NCBI GenBank assembly: GCA_964618805.1
Contig: CAZUBM010000031.1
Location: 1-18,304, forward strand
DNA: 18,304 nucleotides
Reading direction: 5' to 3'
Source: an uncultured Nitrososphaerota archaeon
Lineage (GTDB): Archaea; Korarchaeota; Korarchaeia; Korarchaeales; Korarchaeaceae
Part shown: positions 1,645 to 18,304 of the stretch, piece by piece
Position numbering within the stretch: the stretch's first letter is position 1
How the letters are laid out: every line of letters begins with the position of its first letter
Translations under genes and position numbers: made by a program
The notes under the pieces: model-generated
Told to the model about the DNA's origin: nothing
Seen by the model: the letters and a program-made list of their open reading frames with translations, nothing else
Databases searched by the model: none

Positions 1645-3828
1645 TTGGGCGAAATAAAACGCTATCTAAGATTGTTTGGCTACCTAAAGCTATTAGATTG
1701 GGCTTCGATCGCAATTATTGTTGCTCACTTCATCCTGCTGTTTTCAAAAAGGAACATGCTTCCCTTTGGCTTTGACACACCTTACCACCTTCTGATGGGG
1801 AAGATGTACGCTGATTTCGATAGAGTAGTCCTCTGGGATTATTATGAGTTTGCTCCCGTAGGAAGACCTCAGCTATATCCCCCATTCGAGCACGTTCTCA
1901 TTTGGTGGATCCATGATGGCCTTGGGCTGAATTACGTTGTAATAGGAAGGCTGATAGCAGTAGTTCAATATCCTCTGACCCTCTTCCTCTCTTGGTTGAT
2001 AATCAGGCTTCTCTTCGATGATGTAACTGCGGCCTCCTTTCTAGGTCTTTTGTCTGCTGACGGAAGCTTTTGGAGCTGGCAACTTACTGTGGCCCCTACC
2101 GCTATGATATTGGCTTTGTACATGCCTTTCCTTTACTTCTTCCTGAAAAAGAGGAGATATATAGCAACAGCCCTCCTTACGATCTTCCTTTACTCCCACC
2201 TAGGCATGCCCTACACCATAATGCTTTCTCTAGCAATATCAGCAGTTCTCATGTATAAACTGGATCATAGCTACCTCAAGGAAGCTGCCTTTGTGACTTG
2301 CCTTTCCCTGATACTCTTCTTCCCTTGGGCTTTCCACATCCTCAACAACCTCGATGCTCTCAGAGCAAACTTGGCCAGAGGAAAATTCCAAATACTCGGG
2401 TTCCTATCCATGAGCATCCCGACCCTTCTCCTGCTCCCTCTTGGGATTTATGCCTGTTTTAAGGAGAAGCTCAAAGGGAGGCTGTTTATCGGGAGCTTCC
2501 TAGGTTTCTTTTCAATCCTCTTCACTTATGGTTCGAGGTACTTCCTCCATGCACCTCTGGTGAACTCAGTGATAGCTGCTCTTGGCTACAAGAGGATTAT
2601 TGGACGTACGAACAACAGGAAGCTTATCTTAACTGTTACTCTAGTGTTTCTGACAGTGAATTCCTTATTCAGCTTTTCTCTTATTCCAATAGGACCTAGA
2701 CGACAATTAAAAAGGCCTAAAATCATAGAACCAGCTCCATTGACAAGAGAACTTACTACAATGGTTTCAGAGGAGCCTAAGGCTTGGGGGGCATTCAGCC
2801 TGAACAATCCGGACCTAATATCATTAGCTGATTGGATAATTGAAAACACAAGAGAGGACGAGATAATACACGTAAGGGTAGGCCCCCTTGCAGATGCCAT
2901 TACCCTTCTAACGGGCAGGAGAACCGATCATGGCATGTATCCGGAGGTTAGAACTGAAGAGATGTTTAGGGCAATTGCTCAAGGTAGAAAAAGCGGTCTT
3001 TTTGTTTTGACGACAGAACAGCTAAGGATCATGAGATTATTCGCGATAAGATCTGAGATATTGGCCGTCTTCGGCAGTTTCGTAGTAGTCTATGCAACCG
3101 GTGAGGTTAAGCCTCCAAACCTTCTAGCGAAGCCTATTTCTATTTACATAAGACTCCCTGATCTAAGGCATGTCGATCAAAAGTTGCTTGATGCATGGCT
3201 CAACTTAATCCATGAATTGAATCCAGATAGGGTTTCCATTGGGGTGCACCAGAGAGATCTTGGAAATCCAAAGCTTTTCACGTTTATCTCAGAAGTTAAG
3301 GGAGTCGTGGACATCATAGAGATCTCGATCTTCGTAGTTGATCAAAGCAGCCTTAAGTCCAACATAAAGTCCCTAATTTCTGCCATAGGAAGCCAGATAG
3401 ATGCATTAAGGATCTGTGGAAAACCCGCTATATTTACTCCAGAACTCATTGAAGGTATCAGGAAAGAGGTAGGAGATAGGGACTTAGGAATTGGAGTTAT
3501 AGGTTTTCCAGCAGAGGAGTTAAGGGAATGGCATAATCCGGAGGAGATCTTTGAACTAATCGATTATTTTGTACGTCACGTGCCTCCCTCTGCAGATTTC
3601 ATTTTGCATGCGGTGCAGGCTGATGTAAATGCATTTGAACGATTTAAAAAACCTATTTTAGTCCAAATAGACCTATCAATAGCGAGAATAAAGGATGAAA
3701 CAGCTTTGCTGAATTTACTTGCAGCAACCCATCAAACGAATGCTTCTGGCATTCTAATTGAGTTCGATGATCCCTTTATACCGCCGAAAATCTTAGAACT
3801 CCTCAAAATGGCAGCAAGCCATCATTAA
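1645..3828 (+). CDS. Polytopic membrane protein with a GT-C/STT3-like glycosyltransferase architecture and an additional C-terminal soluble domain
   Basis: The first ~350 aa are a series of hydrophobic helices. The first external loop GFDTPYH...WD...APVGRPQLYPPFEH resembles the GT-C/STT3 EL1 pattern. LADWIIENTREDEII...AITLLTGRRT resembles the STT3-type soluble core. TTG start after GGGGAA. Confidence 0.7.
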   Translation: MGEIKRYLRLFGYLKLLDWASIAIIVAHFILLFSKRNMLPFGFDTPYHLLMGKMYADFDRVVLWDYYEFAPVGRPQLYPPFEHVLIWWIHDGLGLNYVVIGRLIAVVQYPLTLFLSWLIIRLLFDDVTAASFLGLLSADGSFWSWQLTVAPTAMILALYMPFLYFFLKKRRYIATALLTIFLYSHLGMPYTIMLSLAISAVLMYKLDHSYLKEAAFVTCLSLILFFPWAFHILNNLDALRANLARGKFQILGFLSMSIPTLLLLPLGIYACFKEKLKGRLFIGSFLGFFSILFTYGSRYFLHAPLVNSVIAALGYKRIIGRTNNRKLILTVTLVFLTVNSLFSFSLIPIGPRRQLKRPKIIEPAPLTRELTTMVSEEPKAWGAFSLNNPDLISLADWIIENTREDEIIHVRVGPLADAITLLTGRRTDHGMYPEVRTEEMFRAIAQGRKSGLFVLTTEQLRIMRLFAIRSEILAVFGSFVVVYATGEVKPPNLLAKPISIYIRLPDLRHVDQKLLDAWLNLIHELNPDRVSIGVHQRDLGNPKLFTFISEVKGVVDIIEISIFVVDQSSLKSNIKSLISAIGSQIDALRICGKPAIFTPELIEGIRKEVGDRDLGIGVIGFPAEELREWHNPEEIFELIDYFVRHVPPSADFILHAVQADVNAFERFKKPILVQIDLSIARIKDETALLNLLAATHQTNASGILIEFDDPFIPPKILELLKMAASHH

Positions 3829-3835
3829 TGCGAAT

Positions 3836-3847
3836 AAGATTTTTAGA
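3836..3847 (+). promoter_or_regulatory. Putative BRE/TATA-like element for the ORF at 3869
   Basis: AAGATTTTTAGA, with the T-run starting 29 nt before the ATG at 3869. The same 10-mer AAGATTTTTA precedes the malic enzyme gene. Confidence 0.4.
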
Positions 3848-3868
3848 TGATCATTTATCCTTTACTAG

Positions 3869-4315
3869 ATGGAAATGAGGAGCCAAAGCGATATCGACGA
3901 TCTCATGAAGGTGCTTGAGAATATAAGGAATTTGGCTCAGAACTCATCTTGTATAGAGACGATAAGCAGATGTAACGATCTAATCGTGAAATCGATTAAG
4001 TTAGCACTCAAGAAAGCTAGTAGTAAAATAGAGGGCCTCTACAGCCTTAATCAACTGAAAAGAGCTGGACTTCCTAGTTGGTACATGGATGCTGTTTGTA
4101 AGGCATGTTGCCATTGGAGTTGAGATTGGAAACGGGCGAGATTTTTCATAGAACATGATGAAAGAGACTACTTAGAAATGACGGACTACGGCTGGAACAT
4201 GGGAGAGCTTCCCACAATTACAGATGTATGGAACAGCTTAGTTCACTGTGCTGCATCCTGTTCATGTACCAGTTCCACTTTCAGTGGTATCTTGAGTCCT
4301 AATAGTCTCAATTAG
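3869..4315 (+). pseudogene. Hypothetical protein interrupted by an in-frame TGA at 4121-4123 (pseudogene or recoded gene); remnants may extend to 4625
   Basis: After the 84-aa ORF the same frame stays open for 63 more codons (DWKRARFFIEHDERDYLEMTDYGWNMGELPTITDVWNSLVHC...) to TAG at 4313-4315. No family is recognised. Confidence 0.45.
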
Positions 4316-4621
4316 AGGAGATGAACCTGTGATAAATGCTATCGCTGTCATCGAAAGCTTGGGAAATAAAAAAGAGTGTTAAACATATCTGCTGGTTTTA
4401 AGGGAGCTGGAGTACTGATCATACGGCTAAAAATAGCGAAAACTTCGCGTGTTACCAGAGAAGCCTGCACTATCTCCATCAGCTTGGAGTGGCCAGAGAT
4501 TATTAGACATAGGTAATTCGTTGTCAGACTTATGAGCGAGGGAAGGAAGGTTGACGAAGTCTTGGCTAATAGCTTCTTATATGTATCAGCTCTTAGAAAA
4601 ATATATGGAGGGAGGGAACGA

Positions 4622-5968
4622 TTAACCGTATATTTTCTTCCCTGGAGGAGTTCTTATGACGCCAGAATCCAACAGAGCTTTCATCTGCTTCCTTGCTTCT
4701 CTTATCTTCTCTTCACATTTGTTGTAGAGTTCATCCCTACTCAAGACCCTTCTTGCAACATCCTGTTCTATGGCTTTTAGACCTGTTGCTGTTGCGACTC
4801 TTGGATAAACCTCCCATTCCATCATCGTAGGTATGATGTACTCCTCATGGAGGCCTTTCTCCTCAGCGAACTTTGCAAGTTCGAATGCAGCCGCAGCGGC
4901 CATTTCATCAGTTACTGTTCTTGCTCTAACCTCTAGAGCTCCTCTAAAGACCGCTGGGAACACTAAGCTGTTGTTGACCTGATTCGGGAAGTCGCTCCTG
5001 CCTGTTGAAACAACCCTAGCTCCTGCTTCCTTAGCCTCCCAAGGCCATATTTCAGGTACTGGGTTTGCCAACGTAAATACTATTGGATCCTTTTCCATGC
5101 TAGCTACCCACTCCTTCTTTATCGTTCCAGGCCCAGGCTTAGATGCCGCTATGACTACATCCATTCCCTCCATTGCCTCCTTTATTCCCCCCTTTCTACC
5201 TTCCTCGTTGCTCTTCATAGTCCACTTATACTTCCAGGGATTCTTCTTCTTAAGATCCTCCATGTCTGGTCTTTCCTTATGTAAAATCCCCTTGCTATCT
5301 ACAAACACCCAGTTCTTCGGATTACCTCCAGCAACCTCTATAACTCTGGCATTTGCAACATTTGCTGCTCCACATCCTATGAAAGCAATGGTTGCATCCC
5401 TAAGTTTTCTTCCAGTTAGCTTTAGGGCATTTATTAGGCCAGCAAGAGTTGCTCCAGCAGTTCCCTGCTGATCATCGTGCCAGACGACGATATTCATCTC
5501 CTTTCTAAGCCTTTCTAATATGTAAAAACAATCAGGAGAGCGAATATCTTCGAGATTTATACCACCAAAAGCAGGTTCAAGCCTTTTAACTGTCTCTATA
5601 AAAACATCAGGGTCCTTCACATTTATTGGAAGAGATATTGCATCTACCCCTCCCAAATATTTGAAGAGCAGCGATTTTCCCTCCATGACTGGTATGGAGG
5701 CTTCTGGACCTATATCTCCTAAACCAAGAACTCTTGTTCCATTTGTTATAACAGCAATGAAGTTCCATCTATTCGTGTAATACCAAACCTTATCAGGATC
5801 CTTTTGTATTGCCCTACACACCTCAGCAACTCCAGGTGTATACCAAACTGCGAAATCCTTGAGGTCATAAACTGGAACATAGGGTGCTATGCATATTTTG
5901 CCCCCGTAAAATTTGGCAAACTTGATTGCAAGCTTATAGGGCTTGTCTACTTCCTTCGTATTACTCAT
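4622..5968 (-). CDS. mae: NAD(P)-dependent malic enzyme (malate oxidoreductase, decarboxylating), 448 aa
   Basis: YTPGVAEVC, TNGTRVLGLGDIGPEASIPVMEGK, GGINLEDI, HDDQQGTA, GxGAA and TGRSDFPNQVNN motifs. The start is moved from 6118 to the ATG at 5968 (MSNTKEV), where family similarity begins and a promoter-like element lies upstream. Confidence 0.96.
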   Translation of the reverse strand: MSNTKEVDKPYKLAIKFAKFYGGKICIAPYVPVYDLKDFAVWYTPGVAEVCRAIQKDPDKVWYYTNRWNFIAVITNGTRVLGLGDIGPEASIPVMEGKSLLFKYLGGVDAISLPINVKDPDVFIETVKRLEPAFGGINLEDIRSPDCFYILERLRKEMNIVVWHDDQQGTAGATLAGLINALKLTGRKLRDATIAFIGCGAANVANARVIEVAGGNPKNWVFVDSKGILHKERPDMEDLKKKNPWKYKWTMKSNEEGRKGGIKEAMEGMDVVIAASKPGPGTIKKEWVASMEKDPIVFTLANPVPEIWPWEAKEAGARVVSTGRSDFPNQVNNSLVFPAVFRGALEVRARTVTDEMAAAAAFELAKFAEEKGLHEEYIIPTMMEWEVYPRVATATGLKAIEQDVARRVLSRDELYNKCEEKIREARKQMKALLDSGVIRTPPGKKIYG

Positions 5969-5998
5969 GTGATATCCCGAGCGAATCTTGGATTGAAC

Positions 5999-6013
5999 TG
6001 TAAAAATCTTTTT
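5999..6013 (-). promoter_or_regulatory. Putative BRE + TATA-like box of the malic enzyme gene
   Basis: The minus strand reads AAAAAGATTTTTACA, with the T-run starting 38 nt upstream of the ATG at 5968. Confidence 0.5.
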
Positions 6014-6199
6014 GTTGTTAGTCAGAATGCCTGCTAAATCAGGCTTAGTCCTTTTGCTAAACCAGCTCATGAAGTTGTCGTTCAAACAATCTTTGTTTTT
6101 AGGACATATGAATGTCATTTAGACAGCTATCAGATCCTCGCCTGAGAATTTTTTAGATTCTAATGTAAGAAGGTGGCTAAGTGAACCTCTACATAACAT

Positions 6200-6212
6200 T
6201 ATTTTTATTAAG
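6200..6212 (+). promoter_or_regulatory. Putative TATA box of the ABC peptide transporter operon
   Basis: TATTTTTATTAAG about 50-60 nt upstream of the ATGs at 6263/6269, with a G-rich SD-like GGGGGA in between. Confidence 0.45.
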
Positions 6213-6262
6213 GAACTGATTGCCCTTAGTCCTAGGGCACAAAGTAGCCCGATAAATGGGGG

Positions 6263-9001
6263 ATGTCAATGAGATATATGAAAAGGATTTCTGCAATTTT
6301 AATCCTCGGGCTATTCGCACTATCCGCCTTTGCCATAATGCCAGTCTCCGCACAACCAAAGAAAGGCCCAGCTGTGGACGAAGTTATCATTGAGGTAAGA
6401 GCTTCAGGAGAAGTGGGTGTCGGCGACGTTGCCACAGGCCTACTCGATGCTTACTGGAAGTCACTTTCTCCATCAGTTTACGCAGGACTGCCTGAGGAAT
6501 GGAAGAAGAATCTCAAGTTAATAAAGAACGCGGGCGGCTTTAATGGACTAATATTAAACCCAGTTCACGATGAGGACAGTCCATACCTCGTAACAGTTGG
6601 TGGAAAGCAGTACTTCAATCCCTTCGCTATTAAGCAAGTTAGATTTGCAATGAACTTCATCTTCAGCAGGAAATACGTTGTGGATGAGATCCTCCTCGGC
6701 GGAGGACAGGGAATGTATGGGATGCCTCAACCGTCCAATCCAAGAAACAGTTTGGTAGAGGACATATACGCTAAGGCCGGATTCTCTCCAGAAGGAGATT
6801 TTGAGTACGGCTTCAATTTGATACAAGATGCTCTTACCAAGGCTGCATCTGAGCTTGGAGGAAGGCTTGAAAAGAGGATCGATCCAAAGGCTCCTGCAGG
6901 CTTCTGGTGGTACTTCGACGGGGAACCAGTTACGATAACGTTCCTGATAAGGATAGAGGATGAGAGACATGAGATGGGCCTTTACATAGCTGATCAGATA
7001 GAGAAGTGCGGGATAAAGGTTGATAGAAGGGAGATAACATTTGCAGAAGGTATAAGGCTGACCTACTACACCGATCCAAAGGACTATGAGTGGAGCATTT
7101 ACACAGAAGGATGGTCGCTGGGTCAGGGAATTAATCCTCTCTACTACGCTGATTATGCAGTTATCTTCTATGCTCCCTTCATAGGGCTCATGCCAGGTTA
7201 TCAGGAGGAGGGATGGTGGCAATATACCAATGATACTCTTGATGATGTAGGCCTTAAGATATGGCTCAGGAAAGTTGAAACCATGGAGGAATTCCACAAG
7301 CTTGCACATGAAGTTGTGGAAATGGGAGTTCAAGAGTCAGTAAGGATTTACATAGTTGAGACTTGGGAGTACTTCCCGGTTAACAAGGAACGTGTGACCA
7401 GGGTTGCTTATGATCCTGCAAGAGGTCTTTGGTCTGAATGGCCCTTGTACACCGCAGATACCCCAGATCACAAGCTCAGGATTTCGGTAGAATCTGCTCA
7501 GCCTGCAATGTTCACCGAGGCCATGAATCCGATAGGCGGCTTTGGGGATGTATACACCGAGTACGGAGTGCGCGTAGCCATAACGGATGATGGAACAGAA
7601 TCAAGCCCAGTCACAGGAGAGCCTGAGCCTTACAGGGCAAACTGGACGATGGAGAAGAAGTATCACTATGAAGCAGGCGAAGTTGTAGGAGAAATCGACG
7701 TTCCTCCAGATGCAGTGATGTACGACACTATGGAGAACAAGTGGGTTGAGGTAGGAGAGGGCGTTAAGGCAGCTGTTAAGGCCACGTTTACCCTTACGTT
7801 CAGCAACTTCCACCACGGCATCATGGAGGACATGAATGACATAAGATACGCTATTGCCCACATGTTTGAGTGGGCAACGCTGGATGAGCCAGGCGACAGG
7901 AAGTATGATGCTAGATATGCTTCTGATCTTGCAGAAACTTTGCCTCTGATAAAGGGGTTCAGGTTCATCGAGCCTAACGTAGTTGAGGTCTACCATAACT
8001 TCATAGAGATTCAATCGGATGCAGTAACCGCTACATTCATCGTCCCATGGACGGCCTGGCCATGGGAGCTTTGGGAAGCAATGGATTGGATAATAGTTAA
8101 TAACGGAAGCGTTACTGGGAACCTCTATTCATGGAACAAGGTTGAGGGCAAGGAATGGCTTAACCTGATAACTGAGGATCATGTTAAGGATCTCATAGCT
8201 GCTCTTGAGGAAATGAGGAACAGAAGACACGTGCCAGATGCGCTTAAGGGATTCATAGATCCTGTAAGGGCTATAGCTAGGTACAACACTGCCATAAGAT
8301 GGGGTCGCGAGAAAGGACACATGCTTATATCAAATGGTCCATTCTACGTGGAGACGTACGATCCAATAAGGCCTTACATGTTGCTTAAGGCCTTCAGAGA
8401 CCCAACTTATCCGTTCACATCTGATTACTGGTACTACAAGTACAGGGTCGTAAGGGAGGTAATAGAGAAGATAGATGCTCCGGTCTCTGCAACCACCGGA
8501 AGCGACATAACGGTTAAGGCTAGCATCATTGAGGTAGTTGAATTCCCGGAGGCAGGAGAAGCTCCATCAGAGAAAGCTTACGTGACAATTTCTCTTGTAT
8601 CACCAGCAGGAGTCACTGTATTCAGCGAAGTAGCAAGCCTTATTGAGCCTGGAGTCTTCCAGGTAACGATACCTGGCAGTGAAACTGAGGGATTAGAAGA
8701 GGGATCATACACAATAAAGGTTACTGCAGCTACTCACGAACTAGCTCCATATGCTGAAGTAGCGACTCAAGAGATCGTTCTTACTGCTCCAGCTGTCACG
8801 CCAACTCCAACTCCAACGCCAAGCCCCACGCCAACCCCAAGTCCAACCCCAAGTCCAACCCCAAGTCCAACCCCAAGTCCAACCCCAAGTCCAACGCCAG
8901 CGCCAACTCCTGCACCAAAGACGAGGCTTTACATCATTGCAGGTGTAATCATAGTAATAATAGTAATTATCGCGGTCTATCTGCTCACAAAGAGGAAGTA
9001 G
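6263..9001 (+). CDS. ABC transporter substrate-binding protein, family 5 (DppA/OppA-like, archaeal type) with C-terminal membrane anchor
   Basis: Signal peptide ([25 protein letters not shown]), [43 protein letters not shown] and ISNGPFY motifs. These are followed by a beta-rich C-terminal domain, a Pro/Thr/Ser linker and a TM helix with a KRK tail. It is the first gene of a BCDF operon. The true start may be 6269 or 6278. Confidence 0.93.
8798..8917 (+). repeat. Coding tandem repeat for the Pro-Thr/Ser linker; five perfect copies of CCAACCCCAAGT at 8831-8890 inside degenerate flanking units
   Basis: Read directly from the sequence. It encodes [15 protein letters not shown](PTPS)[10 protein letters not shown]. 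Confidence 0.95.
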
Positions 9002-9010
9002 AATCTATTA

Positions 9011-9040
9011 CTCCTCCCCTCTTTATTTTTTAGTTTTTAT
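9011..9040 (+). terminator. Putative intra-operon oligo-T terminator/attenuator after the binding-protein gene
   Basis: Pyrimidine tract CTCCTCCCCTCTTTATTTTTTAGTTTTTAT between the stop at 9001 and the SD GGGTGA (9041-9046) of the next gene. Confidence 0.5.
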
Positions 9041-9052
9041 GGGTGAAGAAGT

Positions 9053-10126
9053 TTGAAGATAAGCAGCTACCTGGTTTTAAGGCTTGTAAATGCCCTATTA
9101 GTACTTACAATCGCTCTTTTAATCTCAGCTCTCGTGTTCAATAAGCTTGCGGATCAGCAAATGAGAAGCATGATAAGAGAAATAGTAAAAGGGGAACTAC
9201 AATCAAATCCAGAATTGTTAAGAAGTCTTCAGAAGAACTCGACAGCACTTAAGATATGGATGGAGGAGAGAACGAAATACTACATGAGCGTTTATGGCCT
9301 AGACAAGCCGCTTTGGTATAGGGTGTTTCACAGGGTAGTTCAACAGCTAAAATTTGATTTTGGCTCATCTTCGACAATGATATCTGCCAGTGGAAGTAGC
9401 AGGGTCAGCGATATAATATTGGAAGCACTTCCTAGAACCATTCTTCTGTTCACTACGGGTACTATATTCGTGATTATACTAGGTTTGTTGTTGGGAATGA
9501 AAGCCGCTCAGATGGCTGGCAGTACTCTAGATAAGAGCATCTCCATATTTGCATTGCTCTCTTACAGCTTGCCTATGTGGTGGACAGGAATGCTTTTCAT
9601 CATAATCTTCGCATATTATCTGAGGATAGTTCCATCAGGCGGGATGATGTCAGCACCTCCTCCAGAAGGTCTGTTAGCTAAGATAGGCGATGTACTTTAT
9701 CACTTAGCCCTTCCAGTTGCAACTTATGTGTTCGTTAGTTTTGGAGGATGGTCATACGTCACTAGAAATGTGGTTCTTAGCAACCTTCAAGAGGACTTCG
9801 TCATGGCAGCCAGGGCTAAGGGACTTCCTGAAAGGAAGGTTCTGTATGGCCATGTGTTAAGGGCCTCCGCCCCTCCGATAGTAACGATGATTATAGGAAG
9901 CTTGCTTGGATCCTTAGGCGGGGCCATGATCTCAGAAATAGTGTTTAATTGGCCAGGGATGGGAAGATTATACTGGAATGCACTTAATCAGTTCGACATC
10001 CCTGTTCTAATGGGGAACACCACCATAAGCATGATACTCTTCTTAGCATCATTGGTGTTGATGGACATCACATACATCATACTTGATCCGAGAGTTAGGG
10101 TTGGTGCTATGAGAGTACAGAGGTGA
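9053..10126 (+). CDS. dppB: ABC peptide/nickel-type transporter permease (DppB/OppB-like)
   Basis: YGLDKPL, LPRTILL, YHLALP, EAA loop EDFVMAARAKGLPERKVLYGHVLR, EIVFNWPGMG and C-terminal LDPRVR. TTG start after GGGTGA. Confidence 0.93.
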   Translation: MKISSYLVLRLVNALLVLTIALLISALVFNKLADQQMRSMIREIVKGELQSNPELLRSLQKNSTALKIWMEERTKYYMSVYGLDKPLWYRVFHRVVQQLKFDFGSSSTMISASGSSRVSDIILEALPRTILLFTTGTIFVIILGLLLGMKAAQMAGSTLDKSISIFALLSYSLPMWWTGMLFIIIFAYYLRIVPSGGMMSAPPPEGLLAKIGDVLYHLALPVATYVFVSFGGWSYVTRNVVLSNLQEDFVMAARAKGLPERKVLYGHVLRASAPPIVTMIIGSLLGSLGGAMISEIVFNWPGMGRLYWNALNQFDIPVLMGNTTISMILFLASLVLMDITYIILDPRVRVGAMRVQR

Positions 10127-10130
10127 TAGT

Positions 10131-11558
10131 ATGAGGCTGAAGGATCTCATAGAGAGCCTTAAGGACTTCTGGTTTGAGTACAGGAGACAGAAGATAGGAC
10201 TAGTTGGTTTAGCCCTTTTAATCTTCTTCTTAGGCATGGCGTTGCTTGCTCCTCTTGTAGCACCTGCAGAAGCTAGCAGAAGATGGGGAGATCTTCTATA
10301 CTGGAAGGATTATCCAAAGGCAGCCAAGCCTGGCTGGGTAAAATGGTTTTCTTCCAAGAAAATCCCTGAACACACGATACTGACTGATTATAACATGAGT
10401 AGAAGAGCGATAGGTGCTAAGCTCACAGAGCTTGAGTTTACTTTTGATTACCTCTTTGAGTACGATGAGCCACACACCGAGATAATATTGAAATACGATC
10501 AAAACCTATCAAAGGAAAGCGCTCCTCCAACGCTTATAGTTACTTTCCAGAGACCAGATGGGTATGTGCTCGAGTTGCTTAGCATTAAGGCTCATGAAAC
10601 TGGAGGCTCCGCAAGGCTCAGGATATCATCTGAGCAGTCCCTAATAAACTCGGTTAAGAGCTTTTCAAGGAAGTTCGAGTCGCAGGAACTCATGAACAAA
10701 CTTGGCAAGGAGTTCTTTAGCCCAATGATTCCTTTGTTCTCAAAAGCTCAGGAAGGAATGATATCACCCGAGCTGTCTGAGCCTCTCAGAGGTAAGTACA
10801 GAATAACCGTGACTTTCTATTTGAATAATCCAGAGGACGTTGTAGAGAATGTCACAGTCATACTAGGAGGGAAATTGTACGGCGTGCTGGGAACGGATGT
10901 TTACAGGAGAGATCTGTTCGTTGGAATAGTTTGGGGATCAAGGGTTTCCTTGGCAATAGGTATAATAACATCAGTACTTATGGTAGCTGCTGGGATATTT
11001 TATGGGGTTACGAGCGCTTATCTTGGAGGTTACAAGGACGAGATTATGCAGAGGATATATGAGATATTTTCCTCGATTCCAGTCCTTCCAATACTAATAA
11101 TGATAGGGGCCGTATACAGGTTAACCATATGGAAGACCATTGGAATTCTGATGCTATTCGGCTGGATGGGTGGCTCAAGGGTTGCAAGGAGCATGGCCTT
11201 CCAGATAAAGGAGATGGAATACGTTGATGCGGCCAGAGCCATGGGAGCAAGCAGCTGGTGGATTATAAGGAAGCACATTCTCCCTCAGATAATACCATAT
11301 GCCTTTGCCTCCATGGCCTTAAGTGTGCCAGGAAACGTCCTTCTGGAAGCCGGTCTTTCCTTCCTGGGCCTGGGTGATCTAACAAGGGTAACCTGGGGCA
11401 GGATACTACACGACGCTCAAGCAAACGCTGCAACCATAAACGGCCTATGGTGGTGGGTTCTTCCACCAGGACTTTCGATAGCTCTGCTTGGCTTGGGATT
11501 TGCCTTCATAGGATCTGCTTTAAATACCGTACTGTTCCCGAAGATGAGAAGAATATGA
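10131..11558 (+). CDS. dppC: ABC peptide/nickel-type transporter permease (DppC/OppC-like) with a large extracytoplasmic insertion
   Basis: LGTDVYRRDLF..IVWGSRVSL, EYVDAARAMGAS...IIRKHILP, EAGLSFLGLG, WG.ILH.A and WWWVLPPG motifs. About 200 aa of soluble sequence follows TM1. SD GAGGTGA overlaps the upstream stop. Confidence 0.93.
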   Translation: MRLKDLIESLKDFWFEYRRQKIGLVGLALLIFFLGMALLAPLVAPAEASRRWGDLLYWKDYPKAAKPGWVKWFSSKKIPEHTILTDYNMSRRAIGAKLTELEFTFDYLFEYDEPHTEIILKYDQNLSKESAPPTLIVTFQRPDGYVLELLSIKAHETGGSARLRISSEQSLINSVKSFSRKFESQELMNKLGKEFFSPMIPLFSKAQEGMISPELSEPLRGKYRITVTFYLNNPEDVVENVTVILGGKLYGVLGTDVYRRDLFVGIVWGSRVSLAIGIITSVLMVAAGIFYGVTSAYLGGYKDEIMQRIYEIFSSIPVLPILIMIGAVYRLTIWKTIGILMLFGWMGGSRVARSMAFQIKEMEYVDAARAMGASSWWIIRKHILPQIIPYAFASMALSVPGNVLLEAGLSFLGLGDLTRVTWGRILHDAQANAATINGLWWWVLPPGLSIALLGLGFAFIGSALNTVLFPKMRRI

Positions 11559-11582
11559 TATAGAGAAGGAAAGGGATCGAAT

Positions 11583-12548
11583 ATGCCTCCAGTTATGAAA
11601 GCTACAGATCTAAAAACCTATTATTTCATTTCCAGAGGAGCGGTAAAGGCTGTGGACAAAGTTTCTCTGGAACTAGAGCCAGGATATTGTCTAGGTCTGG
11701 CTGGAGAATCGGGGTGTGGAAAGAGCACTTTCGGCTTCTCCCTTCTTAACCTGGTTCCTCCTCCTGGAAGAATAGTTGACGGAAGCATCTTGATAGATGG
11801 CATAGAAATAGTTGGAATGAAGGAATCTGAGCTCAGAAAAAAGGTGAGATGGAAGAAGGTAAGCATGATATTTCAAGGAGCAATGAACGTCCTGAACCCA
11901 GTTTACAAAGTGGGTTATCAGATGGCTGAGCCCCTGCTCTATCATGAGGATATTTCCAAGAAAGAGGCAATGAAAATAGTTCATGAATATCTGGATCTGG
12001 TAGGGCTAACCCCAGCAGTAGCAGACATGTATCCTCACGAGCTAAGCGGGGGGATGAAGCAAAGAGTTGTGATAGCTACGGCCCTCTTGACCAAACCCAA
12101 GCTATTGATAGCGGATGAACCAACTACGGCCCTAGATGTTATAGTGCAAGCTCAGATCATAAATCTACTTAAGAGATTAAAGAAACAGCTTGACCTCTCC
12201 ATACTGATAATTTCCCACGATCTCAGCGTAATATCTGAAATAGCGGATCATCTTGCAATCATGTATGCTGGGAAGATAGTCGAATATGGGACCTCAGATA
12301 AAGTATACTTGGAGCCAAAGCACCCATACACTAGGGCCTTGCTAGGTGCTTTGCCAAGGCTAAGGGTTAAACAGGAGAGACTAGAATTTATCCCTGGAGC
12401 TCCTCCAGATCTATTGGCACCTCCTCCCGGCTGCAGGTTCCATCCAAGGTGTCGTTATCGTTTTGAGCCGTGTGATAAGGAGGAGCCAGAGTTAATTGAA
12501 GTGGAGCCAGGACAGTGGGTTGCTTGTCATCTGTTCTCAAGGAGGTGA
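11583..12548 (+). CDS. dppD: Peptide ABC transporter ATP-binding protein (DppD/OppD-like)
   Basis: Walker A GESGCGKS, YPHELSGGMKQR, ADEPTTALD, PKHPYT and C-terminal GCRFHPRC...C...VACH. Confidence 0.95.
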   Translation: MPPVMKATDLKTYYFISRGAVKAVDKVSLELEPGYCLGLAGESGCGKSTFGFSLLNLVPPPGRIVDGSILIDGIEIVGMKESELRKKVRWKKVSMIFQGAMNVLNPVYKVGYQMAEPLLYHEDISKKEAMKIVHEYLDLVGLTPAVADMYPHELSGGMKQRVVIATALLTKPKLLIADEPTTALDVIVQAQIINLLKRLKKQLDLSILIISHDLSVISEIADHLAIMYAGKIVEYGTSDKVYLEPKHPYTRALLGALPRLRVKQERLEFIPGAPPDLLAPPPGCRFHPRCRYRFEPCDKEEPELIEVEPGQWVACHLFSRR

Positions 12549-12553
12549 GTTTT

Positions 12554-13576
12554 ATGAGCGAAGCAGAACAAATCAGAAAGGTAGAAGGAGTCATTAGCGT
12601 TGAGAACTTGAAGAAGTACTTCCCGGTAAGAGGAGGTCTAAGAGAATTCATAAGAAGAAGCCTACCTAAATACGTCAAGGCCGTCGATGGTGTTACCTTC
12701 TCCGTAAAGGAAAAGGAGACCTTTGGCCTAGTAGGCGAGTCAGGATGTGGAAAGACCACCACTGGTAGGCTAATAGTAAAGCTGCTGTACCCAACGGAAG
12801 GAAGGATATATTTCAATGGAGCTGATGTGACATATCTGAGCCCAGAAGAGGAGAGGGAATACAGGAAGTTAGTGCAGATAATCTTCCAAGACCCATATTC
12901 ATCGCTCGATCCAAGGCTCAGGGTTTACGACGCCCTTGAGGAACCCCTAATCATCATGAAGCTTGGGGAGAAGGAGGAGAGGAGGGAAAAGATCTACAGG
13001 ATATTGGAAGATGTAAGGCTGGTTCCTCCCGAGGACTTCATGAGCAGATTTCCCCATCAGCTTAGCGGCGGCCAGAGACAAAGGGTTGCAATAGCGAGGG
13101 CCCTAATAGTAAATCCGATTTTCCTAGTGGCAGATGAACCAGTTTCCATGTTAGATCTTTCAATTAGAGCGGAAATCCTTGAGCTTATGAAGGAGCTCAA
13201 GGAAAGGTATGGGCTAACTTATCTTTACATAACTCATGATCTATCAACCGCTAGGTACTTCTGCGATAGGATAGCTGTGATGTACCTTGGTAAGATAGTG
13301 GAGCTGACCACAACAGATAAACTAATAGAGAACCCGTTGCATCCTTATACCAAGGCGCTGCTTATCGCAGTTCCAGAGCCAGATCCGTCTCAGAGGCACA
13401 TTACAAAGGAAATCCCAATAATTGGGGAGGTTCCAAGTGCTTTGAACATCCCATCGGGGTGCAGATTCCACACTAGGTGTCCTTACAAGTTCGATCTATG
13501 CGAGAGGGAGGAGCCAGAGTTAATTGAGGTGGAGCCAGGACATTATGTGGCATGTCATCTTCTATCAAAGAAGTGA
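12554..13576 (+). CDS. dppF: Peptide ABC transporter ATP-binding protein (DppF/OppF-like)
   Basis: GESGCGKT, IFQDPYSSLDPR, FPHQLSGGQRQR, ADEPVSMLD and GCRFHTRC...C...VACH. The start is moved from 12515 to the ATG at 12554, which follows a perfect SD GGAGGTGA (12541-12548). Confidence 0.95.
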   Translation: MSEAEQIRKVEGVISVENLKKYFPVRGGLREFIRRSLPKYVKAVDGVTFSVKEKETFGLVGESGCGKTTTGRLIVKLLYPTEGRIYFNGADVTYLSPEEEREYRKLVQIIFQDPYSSLDPRLRVYDALEEPLIIMKLGEKEERREKIYRILEDVRLVPPEDFMSRFPHQLSGGQRQRVAIARALIVNPIFLVADEPVSMLDLSIRAEILELMKELKERYGLTYLYITHDLSTARYFCDRIAVMYLGKIVELTTTDKLIENPLHPYTKALLIAVPEPDPSQRHITKEIPIIGEVPSALNIPSGCRFHTRCPYKFDLCEREEPELIEVEPGHYVACHLLSKK

Positions 13577-14156: not shown

Positions 14157-14561
14157 CTTACATAGCTTTATTTTGTTCTTATCATGTTTAAAGGGACAAA
14201 TCGAGAGAATTCAAAAACTATCTTTTCAAAGCACACCTATATAGGCTCTGATCTGGTTCCATAACTTTTCTCACAAATCTAAGCTCCAAGATATCGCTTT
14301 GCAAGAGCAGCACATCATGGCGAAATATAGACAACGAGTCGAAAGCTTAAAAGGGACAGATGGCTTTACGATAAAACAGCTGGAGAAATAGAGAAACTAG
14401 AAGAAAAGACAAGAGGCATTTCGACGAGTTTCTAATGGATCATAGAGAATTCTTGAATGAAGCAATTAATTCTGGTAATGATCGAACGACTACTCTGATA
14501 TTTTGAGGAAGTGTTTTTCAAATTTAATGGGAACTATTTCATCGCAATCGAGGTGTTGTAA

Positions 14562-14969
14562 TTGGAGTTCAAAGAAGATATGGAAACCACACTGGCCGGG
14601 CTTACCTCCCTTTTGGGCGTTAATGCGGTTCTCATCTCTGACAGAGAGGGCAGCAAAACCTATTCTTGGTACAGGACTGATCTCGACAAGAGAGACGTCC
14701 GAGTCGCTGGAGAAGAGCTATTGAGGATGTTACAAGTCTCTCAAGGCTTTGGAGTGAATTCTAACATTGGAGGACTGGCCAACATAATTGTTAGAGGTCC
14801 TAAGGGTGTAGCGATACTGGCTCCAGTGGGAGAGTCATTTATCCTATATGTCTCTGCCGACAAAAGGGCTAACCTGGCCTTGCTACTAGTAAGGATAAGA
14901 AGGGCAGTAGAGCGACTTCTGAGGATGTTGGGAGGAGGACCTGTTGGAGGAGTTAGCATCGGTCCTTGA
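14562..14969 (+). CDS. Roadblock/LC7 (MglB-like) domain protein
   Basis: The pattern L..L....GVNAVLISDREG...(long helix)...IGGLANIIVRGPKGVAILAPVGESFILYVSADKRANLALLLVRIRRAVERL matches the Roadblock/LC7 consensus. TTG start after SD GAGGTG (14550-14555). Confidence 0.88.
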   Translation: MEFKEDMETTLAGLTSLLGVNAVLISDREGSKTYSWYRTDLDKRDVRVAGEELLRMLQVSQGFGVNSNIGGLANIIVRGPKGVAILAPVGESFILYVSADKRANLALLLVRIRRAVERLLRMLGGGPVGGVSIGP

Positions 14970-16323
14970 GAGAGCTTTGGAGCTTGGAGCATCGTATGCA
15001 GATGTCAGGGTTACAAAGTCCTTTAGAACGAGGATGTCCGTAGTCAATGGAAACGTTGAGAGGGTAGTTCCCAGCGTTGACCTTAGCGTTGGTGTAAGGG
15101 TCTTGTACCAAGGCGTATGGGGCTTCTCCACTTGTAACTCAACATCAAAGGATGACCTGCTCGAAGCCATTTCCAATGCAGTCAAGCTAGCTAAAGCAGG
15201 GTCTAGCATAGGTGCAGGACGTATTCAGCTGGCTAAGGTCAAGGCTGTAACTGATAGGGTTGAATTAGAGGGTATAAGCGATTCCAGAGAAGTTCCGCTG
15301 GAAGAAAAGCAGGAAATAATATTAGAATCGGATAAGATTGCAAGGGAGCTTGATCCAAGGATCGTCAGGACCCAGTTCGATTACGAGGATTGCGTGGTTG
15401 AAAGACACCTTTTCAGCAGCGAGGGAGGAAAAATATACGAGATCAATCCTTTTACAAGCTTGAGATTCACAATTACAGCAAGGGAAGGTGATAGAATAGA
15501 GAGGACGATAGGGAGGCTTGCTGCGAGTGCTGGACAGGAGTTGTTAGCATTTGCAGATCCAATAGAAATGGCCCAAGGGCTTGCAATGGAGGCCCTTGAC
15601 CTGCTAAAGGCAAAACATCCGCCATCCGGGAGAATGCCGATTATAGTTGACAACAAGATTGCTGGACTAATTGCGTTATGCGTGGACTTGATGGCCACGG
15701 CCACGTTAGCATCAGTCCCAGAGAGCGAAATGGGAGTGTTTTATGGAAGGGTTGGGAAGCAAATTCTCCCAGAAACGTTAGACATTACCGATGACCCAAC
15801 GTCTCCTGGATTGCCAGCCTCATACAAGTACGATGAGGAGGGCGTTGAATCAAGGCCAATGAAGATAATCGAAGCTGGGGTCTTAAAGGGATATCTGCAC
15901 TCAAGGGAGACAGCATATAAGCACGGTACAAGCCCTACTGGTCATGCAAGGGCTCCTAATGCCTCTTTTCTTCCAGTTCCAATGGTTTCAAATGCGATAA
16001 TAGATCCAAGGGATTACACGTTTGAGGAACTTTTTGAGGACGTTGAGAGAGGAATCTATGCTAGGGGGATCGTTGGGGCCACAATTGGCAGGTTCGTTCA
16101 GTGCAAGACGATGATAGCTCAGACCATTGAAAACGGAGAGCTCAAGGATGAGATCTTGAAAGGACCGTCTCTGAGGCTGGATCTTCTAAAGGATCTCTTC
16201 TCAATAGATGCCATAGGCTCAGATTACGATTACCTACCTTTGAGACTAACTAGGGCTGACGAAGCATATTCCGTATCTGGAGGAGGGCCCCATTTAAGGT
16301 TTAGCCAACTCGAGGTGATTTGA
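14944..16323 (+). CDS. tldD: TldD/PmbA family protein, TldD-like subunit lacking the canonical HExxxH metal-binding motif
   Basis: GASYADVR, GVRVLYQGVWGFS, PPSGRMPIIVD, DITDDPT, YDEEGV, IIEAGVLKGYLHSRETA, TGHARA and the terminal GGGPHLR typical of TldD. TTG start after GGAGGAGG; overlaps the Roadblock gene by 26 nt. Confidence 0.9.
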   Translation: MEELASVLERALELGASYADVRVTKSFRTRMSVVNGNVERVVPSVDLSVGVRVLYQGVWGFSTCNSTSKDDLLEAISNAVKLAKAGSSIGAGRIQLAKVKAVTDRVELEGISDSREVPLEEKQEIILESDKIARELDPRIVRTQFDYEDCVVERHLFSSEGGKIYEINPFTSLRFTITAREGDRIERTIGRLAASAGQELLAFADPIEMAQGLAMEALDLLKAKHPPSGRMPIIVDNKIAGLIALCVDLMATATLASVPESEMGVFYGRVGKQILPETLDITDDPTSPGLPASYKYDEEGVESRPMKIIEAGVLKGYLHSRETAYKHGTSPTGHARAPNASFLPVPMVSNAIIDPRDYTFEELFEDVERGIYARGIVGATIGRFVQCKTMIAQTIENGELKDEILKGPSLRLDLLKDLFSIDAIGSDYDYLPLRLTRADEAYSVSGGGPHLRFSQLEVI

Positions 16324-16325
16324 AC

Positions 16326-17717
16326 ATGGATCTCCAAGAGAAGGCGAAGAGATTCCTTCAGATAGCTTTAGAGGAAGAAGGCGTTGAGCAAGCAGAAGTC
16401 TTCTTCTTAAGCAGAAAAAGTACCAGGAACTCCATATTAAGGGAGGCCGGAGAGAGGAAGTTCTTCAGTCAGTTTCTAGAGGACAGAGGAGTTGCTTTTA
16501 GGGTCAAGGTTGGTAAAAAATTGGGCTTCGCCTACAGCTCAGACCTTAGTGAGAGATCAATTAGATTTGCGATCAAGCAGGCAGTTGCTTCTTCGCAAGA
16601 AACGCAAGGTTTTGAATCCTTTCCAAGCCATGCTGGATTGAAAGAACGCGTTGAATATGATGAAGAAGTGGTTGCATTGGATGAGGAGAGGGTTCTTGAG
16701 TTTGTCAAAGGCATGGAAGAGGTAGCTACCTCCCTCTCTCCCAACATAACCGCCGTGGACCTTACTTTTGAGAAGGCCTTAATTCAAACGGCTGTTTTCA
16801 ATACAGAAGGTTCAGAACTCGTTCAGGAGGGCACATATGTTGGAGCTTCAGCAACTCTGAGTTATAGGGATGAAAAACCGATTCAGTACAGCAAAATCCA
16901 GCTCGGAAGAGAGCTTAACCAAGTTAACCCAAGATCTTTGGTCAAACAAGTTTCAGAGGAGCTTATCAGGCTTTCTAAGGATCCAGTAACTGTGGAGAGC
17001 GATGAGTATGAAGCATTGCTATCCCCTGTCGTTGTAACTGAGCTGTTGAGCTATTCATTTGTCAACGCTCTCTGCGCTGATCAGGTGAGATCTGGAGTAT
17101 CTCCTCTCGCAGATAAATTGGGAGAGGAAATTGCTTCTCAGCCTGTGACGATCTGGGATGATCCTACGTATGAGGGAGGTTTGTACACAACTTCCTTCGA
17201 TGACGAAGGAGTCCCTTCCTCCAGGACGTTTCTGATAGAGGACGGAGTCTTAAAAGGGTACATGTATGATAGCATTGCTGGCAGACTTGGAGAGTTCAGA
17301 AGCACCAGTAATTGCGCGAGATGGGAGAGCCCATTATGGGATAAGTTCTTTGCAAGGTCCTATAAGTGCAGACCCAGGATATGGATGAGTAACCTGATCA
17401 TAAGGCCAGGGAAAGGAAAAGTTGAAGACTTGCTCCCTGAAATGAGCAAGGGGATATATTGCTTGGAGATCTTTGCTGGATTCACCATGAGCCCTTCTGG
17501 AGACTTCAGCCTTCCCATACTCCATGGTTACTACGTGGAAGGGGGGCAGATAGTAGGTCCAATAAGGGGTCTTTCCATAAAGGGAAATGTGTTTGAACTG
17601 TTAAAAGGGGTTGTAAGGATAGGAGAGGAGCCAGAGATAACGGTTCCAAACAGCTCATCCGGTTCTGTAGTGACCCCTCCAATTCTGGTTGAAAAAATAA
17701 GGGTGGCAAAGGGATAG
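16326..17717 (+). CDS. pmbA: TldD/PmbA family protein, PmbA/TldE-like subunit
   Basis: QAEVF, GVAFRV..GKKLGFAYSS, ADQVRSGVSPLADKLGEEIAS, FDDEGVP, LIEDGVLKGYMYD, SGDFSL, GNVFELLK and terminal TPPILVEKIRV. No HExxxH, as expected for PmbA. The ATG at 16326 is best spaced from SD GAGGTGA; TTG at 16320 is the alternative. Confidence 0.92.
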   Translation: MDLQEKAKRFLQIALEEEGVEQAEVFFLSRKSTRNSILREAGERKFFSQFLEDRGVAFRVKVGKKLGFAYSSDLSERSIRFAIKQAVASSQETQGFESFPSHAGLKERVEYDEEVVALDEERVLEFVKGMEEVATSLSPNITAVDLTFEKALIQTAVFNTEGSELVQEGTYVGASATLSYRDEKPIQYSKIQLGRELNQVNPRSLVKQVSEELIRLSKDPVTVESDEYEALLSPVVVTELLSYSFVNALCADQVRSGVSPLADKLGEEIASQPVTIWDDPTYEGGLYTTSFDDEGVPSSRTFLIEDGVLKGYMYDSIAGRLGEFRSTSNCARWESPLWDKFFARSYKCRPRIWMSNLIIRPGKGKVEDLLPEMSKGIYCLEIFAGFTMSPSGDFSLPILHGYYVEGGQIVGPIRGLSIKGNVFELLKGVVRIGEEPEITVPNSSSGSVVTPPILVEKIRVAKG

Positions 17718-17723
17718 ACCGCT

Positions 17724-18304
17724 TTATCCCTTTAACTGCGCTGCCCTGAGCCTCCTATATACCCAAAGACCGACTAAGCCAACTGCCCCAATGGGAGCAG
17801 CTAAGAAGGAGCCAACTATGATAAAGGATATTGCAGCGTAAAGTACTGATAAGGCAAGGTTAAGGGTCTTTACAATGTTGAATTCAGGCAGTTCCATCCC
17901 TTTCTTCTCCTCTATGGTTATAGTAAGCGTGCTGTAATCTATCCTCGACATTAGGTTCTTAATCTGAGCTTCCAAAACTTCTACCTCTTCCCTAACTACT
18001 TTAAGCCTATCCTCTACCATAAGAACATCGTTAACGCTTTCAGCCATCGATAGAATCTCAAGAAGCCTTTTTTCAGCTGCCTTAGAGTTGTTTAACCTGA
18101 CTTCAAGATCTATGAGTTGATCTGTAACATCATAGGCGTTAAGATTCTCTGATTTAACCTCTCCTAAATTCTTAATGGCATCCATGGCGGCATCGAGCTG
18201 GTCCGCTGGTACCTTAATTGAGATCACTGCCGCGCGCGCCGCGCGCGCTAGGTTGAGCTATTAATGTGTAGAAGAATCCCAAAGCACTGAGCAATAACAG
18301 GGCT
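17724..18304 (-). pseudogene. DUF4349 domain membrane protein, internally deleted or frameshifted (or misassembled); 5' end beyond the window
   Basis: 17724-18227 encodes the C-terminal part of DUF4349 (ISIKVP...LGEVKSE...DVTDQLIDLEVRL.N....E.RLL......YSTLTI plus TM helices). An in-frame TAG lies at 18258-18260. A hydrophobic segment ALLLLSALGFFYTLIAQPS sits just upstream in another frame. Confidence 0.7.
18229..18248. repeat. 20-bp pure-GC tandem repeat (GCCGCGCGC)x2+GC
   Basis: Read directly from the sequence. It is compositionally unique in this moderately AT-rich window and lies at the DUF4349 breakpoint. Confidence 0.9.

Follow-up and report, generated by a model that had tools for sequence, protein, structure and literature searches.

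We analysed contig C31 (CAZUBM010000031.1, assembly GCA_964618805.1) of an uncultured Nitrososphaerota archaeon that GTDB places in the Korarchaeota, from a genome of 2.18 Mb in 62 contigs that is 93.7 % complete. The window, i.e. the whole stretch of DNA under study, is the entire 18,304-bp contig, and towards its end it carries three consecutive genes on the plus strand. The first, Robl* (14562-14969), encodes a divergent Roadblock/LC7 protein of 135 amino acids (aa) and starts with TTG. The second, TldD* (14944-16323), also starts with TTG and encodes a TldD-derived paralogue of 459 aa that lacks the metal site. The third, TldE* (16326-17717), encodes an apparently dedicated TldE/PmbA partner of 463 aa when read from the ATG at 16326, with an alternative TTG at 16320. 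Sites resembling Shine-Dalgarno (SD) sequences precede all three on the same strand: GAGGTG at 14550-14555 before Robl*, GGAGGAGGA at 14931-14939 before TldD* and within the Robl* coding region, and GAGGTGA at 16312-16318 before TldE* and within the 3′ end of TldD*. An earlier reading of this DNA made from the letters alone (the sequence-only reading) had described three co-oriented genes, each with such a site, and a 26-nucleotide (nt) overlap between the Roadblock gene and tldD; both descriptions agree with our open reading frame (ORF) calls. It had also let pmbA start at the tldD stop codon. The close spacing holds, the exact position does not, as ATG 16326 begins 2 nt past the TldD* stop (16321-16323). 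We prefer this ATG because the SD-like site ends 7 nt before it and just 1 nt before TTG 16320, the database copy of the protein has 463 aa and the orthologues begin with MDL.

A promoter-like block is conserved within the triad only ahead of Robl*. This T/A-rich block (14501..14527, plus strand), which has AAATTTAA at its end, lies about 35-60 nt 5′ of the Robl* start and is nearly invariant in all five aligned regions of the window's lineage, while the DNA further 5′ diverges. The TTG start of Robl* and the GGTG core of its SD-like site are likewise invariant in five of five aligned loci. This pattern fits a promoter before Robl*, and the block could represent an archaeal B recognition element (BRE)/TATA element. 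A search for sequencing runs turned up DNA from hydrothermal-vent metagenomes, one of which may be the source, and no RNA for the operon. As for spacing, the genes overlap by 26-29 nt in the window's lineage and by 4 nt in the Odin-like lineage.

TldD* contains three PmbA_TldD Pfam domains (61, 46.2 and 141.3 bits). Its profile matches Escherichia coli TldD with E ~1e-37 and E. coli PmbA with E 1.6e-18, and its clade sits within the TldD half of the tree, so the protein descends from a true TldD, not from a TldE. Its scores fall far below two NCBIfam cut-offs (196.3 bits for archaeal TldD, cut-off 635, and 104.8 bits where 513 is required). HExxxH is absent from both Tld proteins of the window, as the sequence-only reading had stated, and in TldD* the C-terminal G-x-C-G-K is missing as well, and with it the third metal ligand, a Cys (or Asp). 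According to alignments, column statistics and translation, the position of the lost HExxxHxxExD helix (15676..15705, plus strand) now reads LCVDLMATAT; alignments and column statistics place the lost G-x-C-G-K clamp, with its Cys ligand and Lys, at 16240..16254 (plus strand), where TldD* reads LRLTR. When TldD* is compared with paralogues and 23 canonical TldD sequences, every active-site residue invariant in canonical TldD proves to be replaced, namely the two His and the Glu of HExxxH, the Glu and Asp that come after it, the brace Arg-Met and the G-x-C-G-K clamp. The part of Ghilarov et al. 2017 (PMC5810440) available to us gives H262, H267 and C454 as the zinc ligands of E. coli TldD and E263 as the catalytic residue, and describes E270, D272, R362 and K456 as holding the peptide cleft together; TldD* has no equivalents of these four tethering residues. 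TldD* has thus lost its three metal ligands together with the catalytic Glu and the cleft-tethering residues. The TldD* alignment contains no newly conserved His or Cys; its newly invariant charged residues are R40, E124, R139, E166, R174, R191, R383 and D413. The motif loss, whose correlation with the Roadblock linkage the sequence-only reading had proposed to test, is bounded to this clade: at E<=1e-155 the TldD* profile recovered 25 clusters, all of them devoid of HExxxH and of CGK, and the following 45 matches (E 1e-76 to 1e-23) all keep HExxxH, 44 of them with CGK and the lone exception being truncated.

TldE* has all three PmbA_TldD domains and no metal motif, and its gene adjoins a TldD-type gene. 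It misses the NCBIfam PmbA equivalog widely (68.1 bits, cut-off 438). Alignment of TldE* with ordinary TldE rows revealed a TldE*-specific insert, CARWESPLWDKFFAR (17313..17357, plus strand). The insert amounts to 11 residues; C330, W333, E334, P336, D339, F341 and R344 are invariant in all 19 TldE* rows, and most insert columns are gaps in nearly all of the 31 ordinary TldE rows. It occupies the position of the inward-facing brace of TldD, a structure to which the portion of Ghilarov et al. 2017 (PMC5810440) at hand assigns a role. TldE* is a specialised partner that has co-diverged with TldD*.

The family assignment of Robl* was less straightforward. Its match to Pfam Robl_LC7 is borderline (23.5 bits, cut-off 23); Pfam scores of 23.5 and 26.6 bits were obtained for Robl* proteins, and the Odin-like copies gave no match. 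Comparison by hhalign with ordinary Roadblocks of the same genome, which has four, returned a probability of 97.6 % and E 2.8e-12. Searched against PDB sequences, the Robl* profile recovered the dynein light chain (LC) roadblock (E 3.9e-5) and, over the full length, the Roadblock/LC7 chains 9jue_D (E 6e-5) and 7f8m_A (E 1.5e-4). Moreover, 27 of its 30 language-model neighbours in ESM-Atlas are Robl_LC7 clusters. Taken together, the profile alignment, the PDB matches and the ESM-Atlas neighbours settle the assignment despite the borderline Pfam score, and by sequence Robl* is a divergent member of the Roadblock superfamily. The family carries the signature WYRT...D(K/R)RANLALL. Its profile gathers 45 clusters, all at E<=1e-34, among 5.8 billion proteins, and an exhaustive profile search showed that further stand-alone proteins carry the WYRT...ANLA signature. 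Robl* proteins of the Atabey/Njord type also have a conserved N-terminal F-G-T-P-M-P-x-R-E-P before the Roadblock core (L019 593-640, L020 3481-3540, L067 2082-2140 and L068 4911-4990), which may be a short docking motif. The window's lineage lacks this peptide and has a Gly-rich C-terminal tail in its place.

The nearest Asgard matches of the Robl* profile outside the module (E 1e-13 to 1e-18) are Roadblock-like genes for proteins of 148-164 aa, each situated directly before or after a Ras-family GTPase gene (111-116 bits for the two GTPases scanned). We located such pairs in four Asgard genomes (L076 1363-2548, L077 1426-2605, L078 1140-2337 and L079 749-1986); one of these Roadblock-like genes was scanned and gave no Pfam match at 1e-3. 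A Roadblock tree of 46 rows unites the Robl* groups with the Ras-GTPase-adjacent Roadblocks in one superclade (support 99) apart from the generic Roadblocks; it does not settle the branching order within that superclade.

The triad recurs across distant lineages, which bears out the conserved gene order expected by the sequence-only reading. Among distinct Robl* loci with downstream DNA, from genomes and metagenomes, the next gene is a motif-less TldD* in 12 of 12, and TldE* then follows in all 11 that extend further; four more loci end within or just after Robl* and are uninformative for the next gene. Of 43 genomes in the window's phylum, three contain Robl* (E<=1.5e-47), and TldD* (E<=1e-80) occurs in precisely these three, all from the window's genus; no genome has one alone. 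The Asgard archaea give the same picture: TldD* (E<=1e-90, with four candidates per genome scored) was found in five of 400 genomes, the same five that have Robl* (E<=1e-31), again with neither gene alone. Two further members of the window's genus (G040 and G041) lack the module; they are 75-78 % complete and the flanking DUF4349 gene is also missing from them, so that gene loss and incomplete assembly are indistinguishable. Identity of the triad between phyla is 33-54 %. TldD* proteins 45-54 % identical to ours come from records named Atabeyarchaeia and Promethearchaeati, Njordarchaeota and Odinarchaeota, and Robl* proteins 75-80 % identical from records named 'Candidatus Korarchaeota archaeon'; the 85 % identical locus L018 is recorded as 'uncultured Nitrososphaerota archaeon', which conflicts with the latter label. 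The hosts are heat-loving archaea and few in number, with Asgard archaea among them. The flanks change completely, from a peptide-type ABC transporter and DUF4349 in the window's lineage to a GDPD gene and another TldD/TldE pair in Atabeyarchaeia and yet other genes in Odin-like genomes. Strict adjacency and exact co-occurrence nevertheless span four lineages, which is hard to explain other than by a shared function. Robl*-TldD*-TldE* is therefore a discrete conserved three-gene module.

Phylogenies of the two Tld proteins agree with this. In a tree of 59 rows, the TldD* clade (12 rows, stem 0.7) lies within the TldD half and the TldE* clade (10 rows, stem 0.5) within the TldE half, both with 100 in the SH-like approximate likelihood ratio test (SH-aLRT), and the same lineage groups recur in both clades. 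Within TldE*, the sister group of the window's lineage is the Odin-like lineage (support 99). Several Asgard lineages carry the module, as does one genus out of the ten in the window's phylum, a distribution that suggests transfer from an Odin-like donor; most likely, the module arose in Asgard archaea and reached a single genus of the window's phylum by this route. Pairwise ratios of nonsynonymous to synonymous substitution rates (dN/dS) within the window's lineage were 0.06-0.16 for Robl*, 0.03-0.05 for TldD* and 0.05-0.06 for TldE*, with dS near saturation in several pairs. Such values are those of maintained, not decaying, genes, and we regard the module as a horizontally mobile three-gene unit maintained by selection.

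We used the intact TldD/TldE pairs as controls. The window's genome has six full pairs and a fragmentary seventh copy (C15:27903-28992). HExxGH is present in the other five (C1:118153-120928, C1:233889-236602, C2:55622-58434, C2:128036-130789 and C3:57426-60192), and the window's pair alone is without it. None of the five intact pairs is linked to a Roadblock gene, the closest one being 14 kb away. The tie between Roadblock adjacency and motif loss that the sequence-only reading had wished to test is thereby upheld, as the motif is missing from TldD at all 12 loci where Robl* adjoins it and 0/5 intact pairs have a Roadblock closer than 14 kb. At 16 of 21 other TldD-homologue loci we also scanned small ORFs, 49 in all, and none of them scored as Robl_LC7; of these 21 loci, HExxxH was checked in three (L022-L024). 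PmbA_TldD domain matches number 14-17 in Atabeyarchaeia genomes and 8-10 in Odin-like genomes, and the examined module-bearing genomes have 3 to ~8 other TldD/TldE pairs.

A sub-threshold candidate and one looser case were seen among the intact loci. A micrarchaeotal locus (L023 345-3023) contains a gene for a KaiC-like ATPase, an ORF of 107 aa with a sub-threshold likeness to LAMTOR5, a UPF0175 gene and then an intact TldD (HEAVGH), so that the LAMTOR5-like ORF lies beside the KaiC-like gene and two genes from TldD. In Atabeyarchaeum (L085, G043:C1:856500-864500, 2112-6729) an ordinary Roadblock gene stands divergently 5′ of an M24 peptidase gene, behind which lie an intact TldD (HETIGH) and TldE. 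Roadblock followed by an M24 gene was found in three other Asgard genomes (L080-L082), there with no TldD. The M24-adjacent Roadblock falls in the generic Roadblock group of the tree, outside Robl*.

Roadblock domains are regarded as platforms for NTPases. No small-GTPase family matched on contig C31, in line with the sequence-only reading, and none of the 12 module loci contains a GTPase gene. Elsewhere in the genome, a gene for an MglA-like GTPase adjoins an ordinary Roadblock (C1:175402-176528), and two strong Ras-family genes (C30 and C34) have no Pfam-detectable Roadblock beside them; together with the five intact pairs given above, these are the GTPases and canonical tldD genes that the sequence-only reading had wished to see listed. 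The Ras-like genes leave signalling through Robl* to a GTPase in trans as a possible arrangement. The C34 GTPase was considered as a partner tracking the module and rejected, as its distribution does not match (see below). The C30 frame (C30:9065-10136; L086 1039-2137) scores 128 bits as a Ras-family protein and has no start codon of its own; it follows a 217-aa membrane ORF in another frame, with one TAA inside the match, and may be a frameshifted or membrane-anchored GTPase. By eye, the start of the 298-aa gene before it resembles a longin or Roadblock protein. At C18:23681-24943 (L015), another Roadblock lies beside a GPN-loop GTPase (ATP_bind_1); it is the GTPase that is split, into ORFs of 74 aa and 103 aa on the strand opposite to the Roadblock gene.

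The explanation that we favour, and hold to be rather probable, is that the triad is one conserved operon encoding a non-proteolytic shell of the TldD/TldE type with its own Roadblock subunit. TldD* and TldE* would have kept the hollow heterodimeric structure of their E. coli counterparts, and Robl* would bind this heterodimer, probably via TldD*, which is the more derived of the two and whose gene overlaps that of Robl*. Such an assembly would serve as a binding, scaffold or regulatory device and not as a protease, and it may connect to another factor, for instance a Ras-like GTPase encoded elsewhere.

Several observations weigh against this explanation or narrow it. The genes of the Atabeyarchaeia loci lie 39-49 nt apart, so that translational coupling, proposed by the sequence-only reading, finds support in the tight spacing of the window's and Odin-like lineages and is not universal. 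The count of 12 in 12 loci omits several further WYRT-type Roadblocks and a third TldD* subgroup. No fusion of Robl* with TldD was found among 54 profile matches in 1.84 billion representatives: the 15 matches with E<=1e-10 are 72-156 aa long, and 13 longer ones (221-507 aa) were scanned for domains and contain TPR, receiver/DUF4388 or nothing beyond Robl_LC7, the scan having left out two long repetitive matches of 1250 and 2475 aa. With the cleft-stabilising residues gone, peptide binding is less likely to have simply been retained; the sequence-only reading had suggested a repurposed peptide binder, and this idea has lost ground with the zinc ligands and the equivalents of E270, D272, R362 and K456. 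The C34 Ras-like GTPase occurs in 11 of the phylum's 43 genomes, among them the two genus members that lack the module, as against 3 of 43 for the module, and this broader phyletic pattern does not make it a specific partner. Finally, Tran et al. 2024 (PMC10933270) state that Roadblock genes of Asgard archaea do not, as a rule, share operons with GTPase genes, so that Robl* could work with a GTPase in trans and have no more than a transcript in common with the other two genes.

Two other explanations retain some weight. The pair could still be enzymatic, its active site having moved or changed, and be regulated by Robl*. Candidate sites would be the Cys, Glu and Asp of the TldE* insert or the newly fixed Arg and Glu of TldD*, and the insert residues invariant in 19 of 19 rows at the position of the TldD brace, the many newly invariant charged residues of TldD* and the very strong purifying selection would all suit such an enzyme. 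TldD*, however, has no new conserved His or Cys, no known catalytic motif is matched, such an activity is not named in any family or defence model, and the conserved charges could just as well belong to an interface or a ligand site; we consider this explanation unlikely. About as improbable, in our view, is that the three genes are co-transcribed and form no three-way complex, with Robl* serving a GTPase elsewhere and TldD*/TldE* modulating the five canonical proteases, e.g. through mixed inactive dimers. Ras-family genes without an adjacent Pfam-detectable Roadblock (C30 and C34), the MglA-like/Roadblock pair and the other TldD/TldE pairs of the module-bearing genomes would provide the partners, and the consulted text of PMC10933270 has Asgard Roadblocks often unlinked to their GTPases. 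However, strict adjacency and exact co-occurrence in four lineages are hard to explain without a shared function, and the co-divergence of TldD* and TldE* fits pairing with each other better than pairing with other paralogues.

A bolder extension of the favoured shell explanation is that the TldD*/TldE* cage senses a peptide or an anionic small molecule bound in its interior and that Robl* relays its occupancy to a Ras-like GTPase encoded elsewhere. We regard this as doubtful; if true, the sensor cage would be an archaeal, Asgard-born counterpart of nutrient sensing on Roadblock platforms such as Ragulator-Rag. That a decaying paralogous pair lies by chance beside an unrelated small gene is very improbable, since, although this is the sixth pair of a 2.18-Mb genome that also has a fragmentary seventh on C15, and scores lowest of them in Pfam and NCBIfam, all frames are intact with dN/dS of 0.03-0.16, the triad is kept at 33-54 % identity between phyla and the clades are discrete with many invariant residues of their own. 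A reading as an anti-phage defence system was dropped, as PADLOC defence models gave no match to the three proteins at E<=0.01.

The module is of interest because one Roadblock lineage is strictly partnered in genomes with a cage that is apparently unable to cut, and no GTPase gene belongs to the module. It defines a small and sharply bounded pseudo-enzyme family (25 TldD* and 45 Robl* clusters among 5.8 billion proteins), and it bears on the role that a TldD/TldE shell may have when it is not a protease and on whether Asgard Roadblocks may act as adaptors for machinery other than GTPases.

Regarding the surroundings of the module, the 405 nt between the gene for a 210-aa membrane protein and Robl* (14157-14561) contain no genes. 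The corresponding interval in the 85 % identical relative L018 has four ORFs of ~2 kb, including an opposite-strand gene for a Lys/Glu-rich protein of 121 aa that recurs in L045/L065, L062 and L066. Further upstream, 6263-13576 encodes a peptide-type ABC transporter with two permeases, two oligo_HPY ATPases and a 912-aa SBP_bac_5 protein with a Pro/acidic C-terminal repeat. The last transporter ATPase and the membrane protein are also found 5′ of the module in L018 and are absent from the Asgard loci. The next gene downstream of TldE* is the convergent DUF4349 gene, and an inverted repeat seen by eye, GGGATA ... TATCCC (17711-17730), spans the TldE* stop between the two. A 727-aa ORF at 1645-3828 has no Pfam or NCBIfam match.

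To our knowledge, what the many archaeal TldD/TldE paralogues do is poorly understood. No paper linking TldD or PmbA with Roadblock proteins was found in the literature searched, supplements being outside its scope. As far as these searches show, the Robl*-TldD*-TldE* module is undescribed, and the sequence-only reading, which knew of no such module, was right on this point.

Among known systems, the closest to the Tld part of the module is the heterodimeric E. coli TldD/TldE metalloprotease (PDB 5NJ5 and related entries; PMC5810440), which is likewise encoded by two adjacent paralogous genes with three PmbA_TldD domains in each product. TldD* aligns with E. coli TldD from end to end, and E. 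coli TldE is also non-catalytic by nature. Unlike E. coli TldD, TldD* is without H262, E263, H267, E270, D272, the R362 equivalent, C454 and K456. The differences from the E. coli pair extend to the invariant insert of TldE*, to the Roadblock gene included in the operon and to the NCBIfam equivalog cut-offs, which are widely missed.

The Roadblock part can be compared with MglA/MglB and other Ras-like GTPase-Roadblock pairs, including the one at C1:175402-176528, and with the Ragulator-like platforms. Robl* resembles MglB in belonging to the Roadblock superfamily, in its size and in a conserved C-terminal helix region, and in the tree it clusters with Roadblocks whose genes lie immediately ahead of one for a Ras-family GTPase. 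In contrast to MglA/MglB, the module includes no GTPase gene in any lineage and has TldD* and TldE* as the partner genes, and the sequence of Robl* is far from that of ordinary Roadblocks. The Asgard Roadblock proteins described in the part of Tran et al. 2024 (PMC10933270) open to us are small and form dimeric platforms. The Robl* profile matches the Roadblock/LC7 entries 7f8m and 9jue over the full length, and one may speculate, by analogy, about a likeness of the module to Ragulator nutrient sensing. The Asgard and the eukaryotic Ragulator/LAMTOR platforms are discussed as regulators of GTPases, whereas the conserved genomic partner of Robl* is an apparently dead protease cage.

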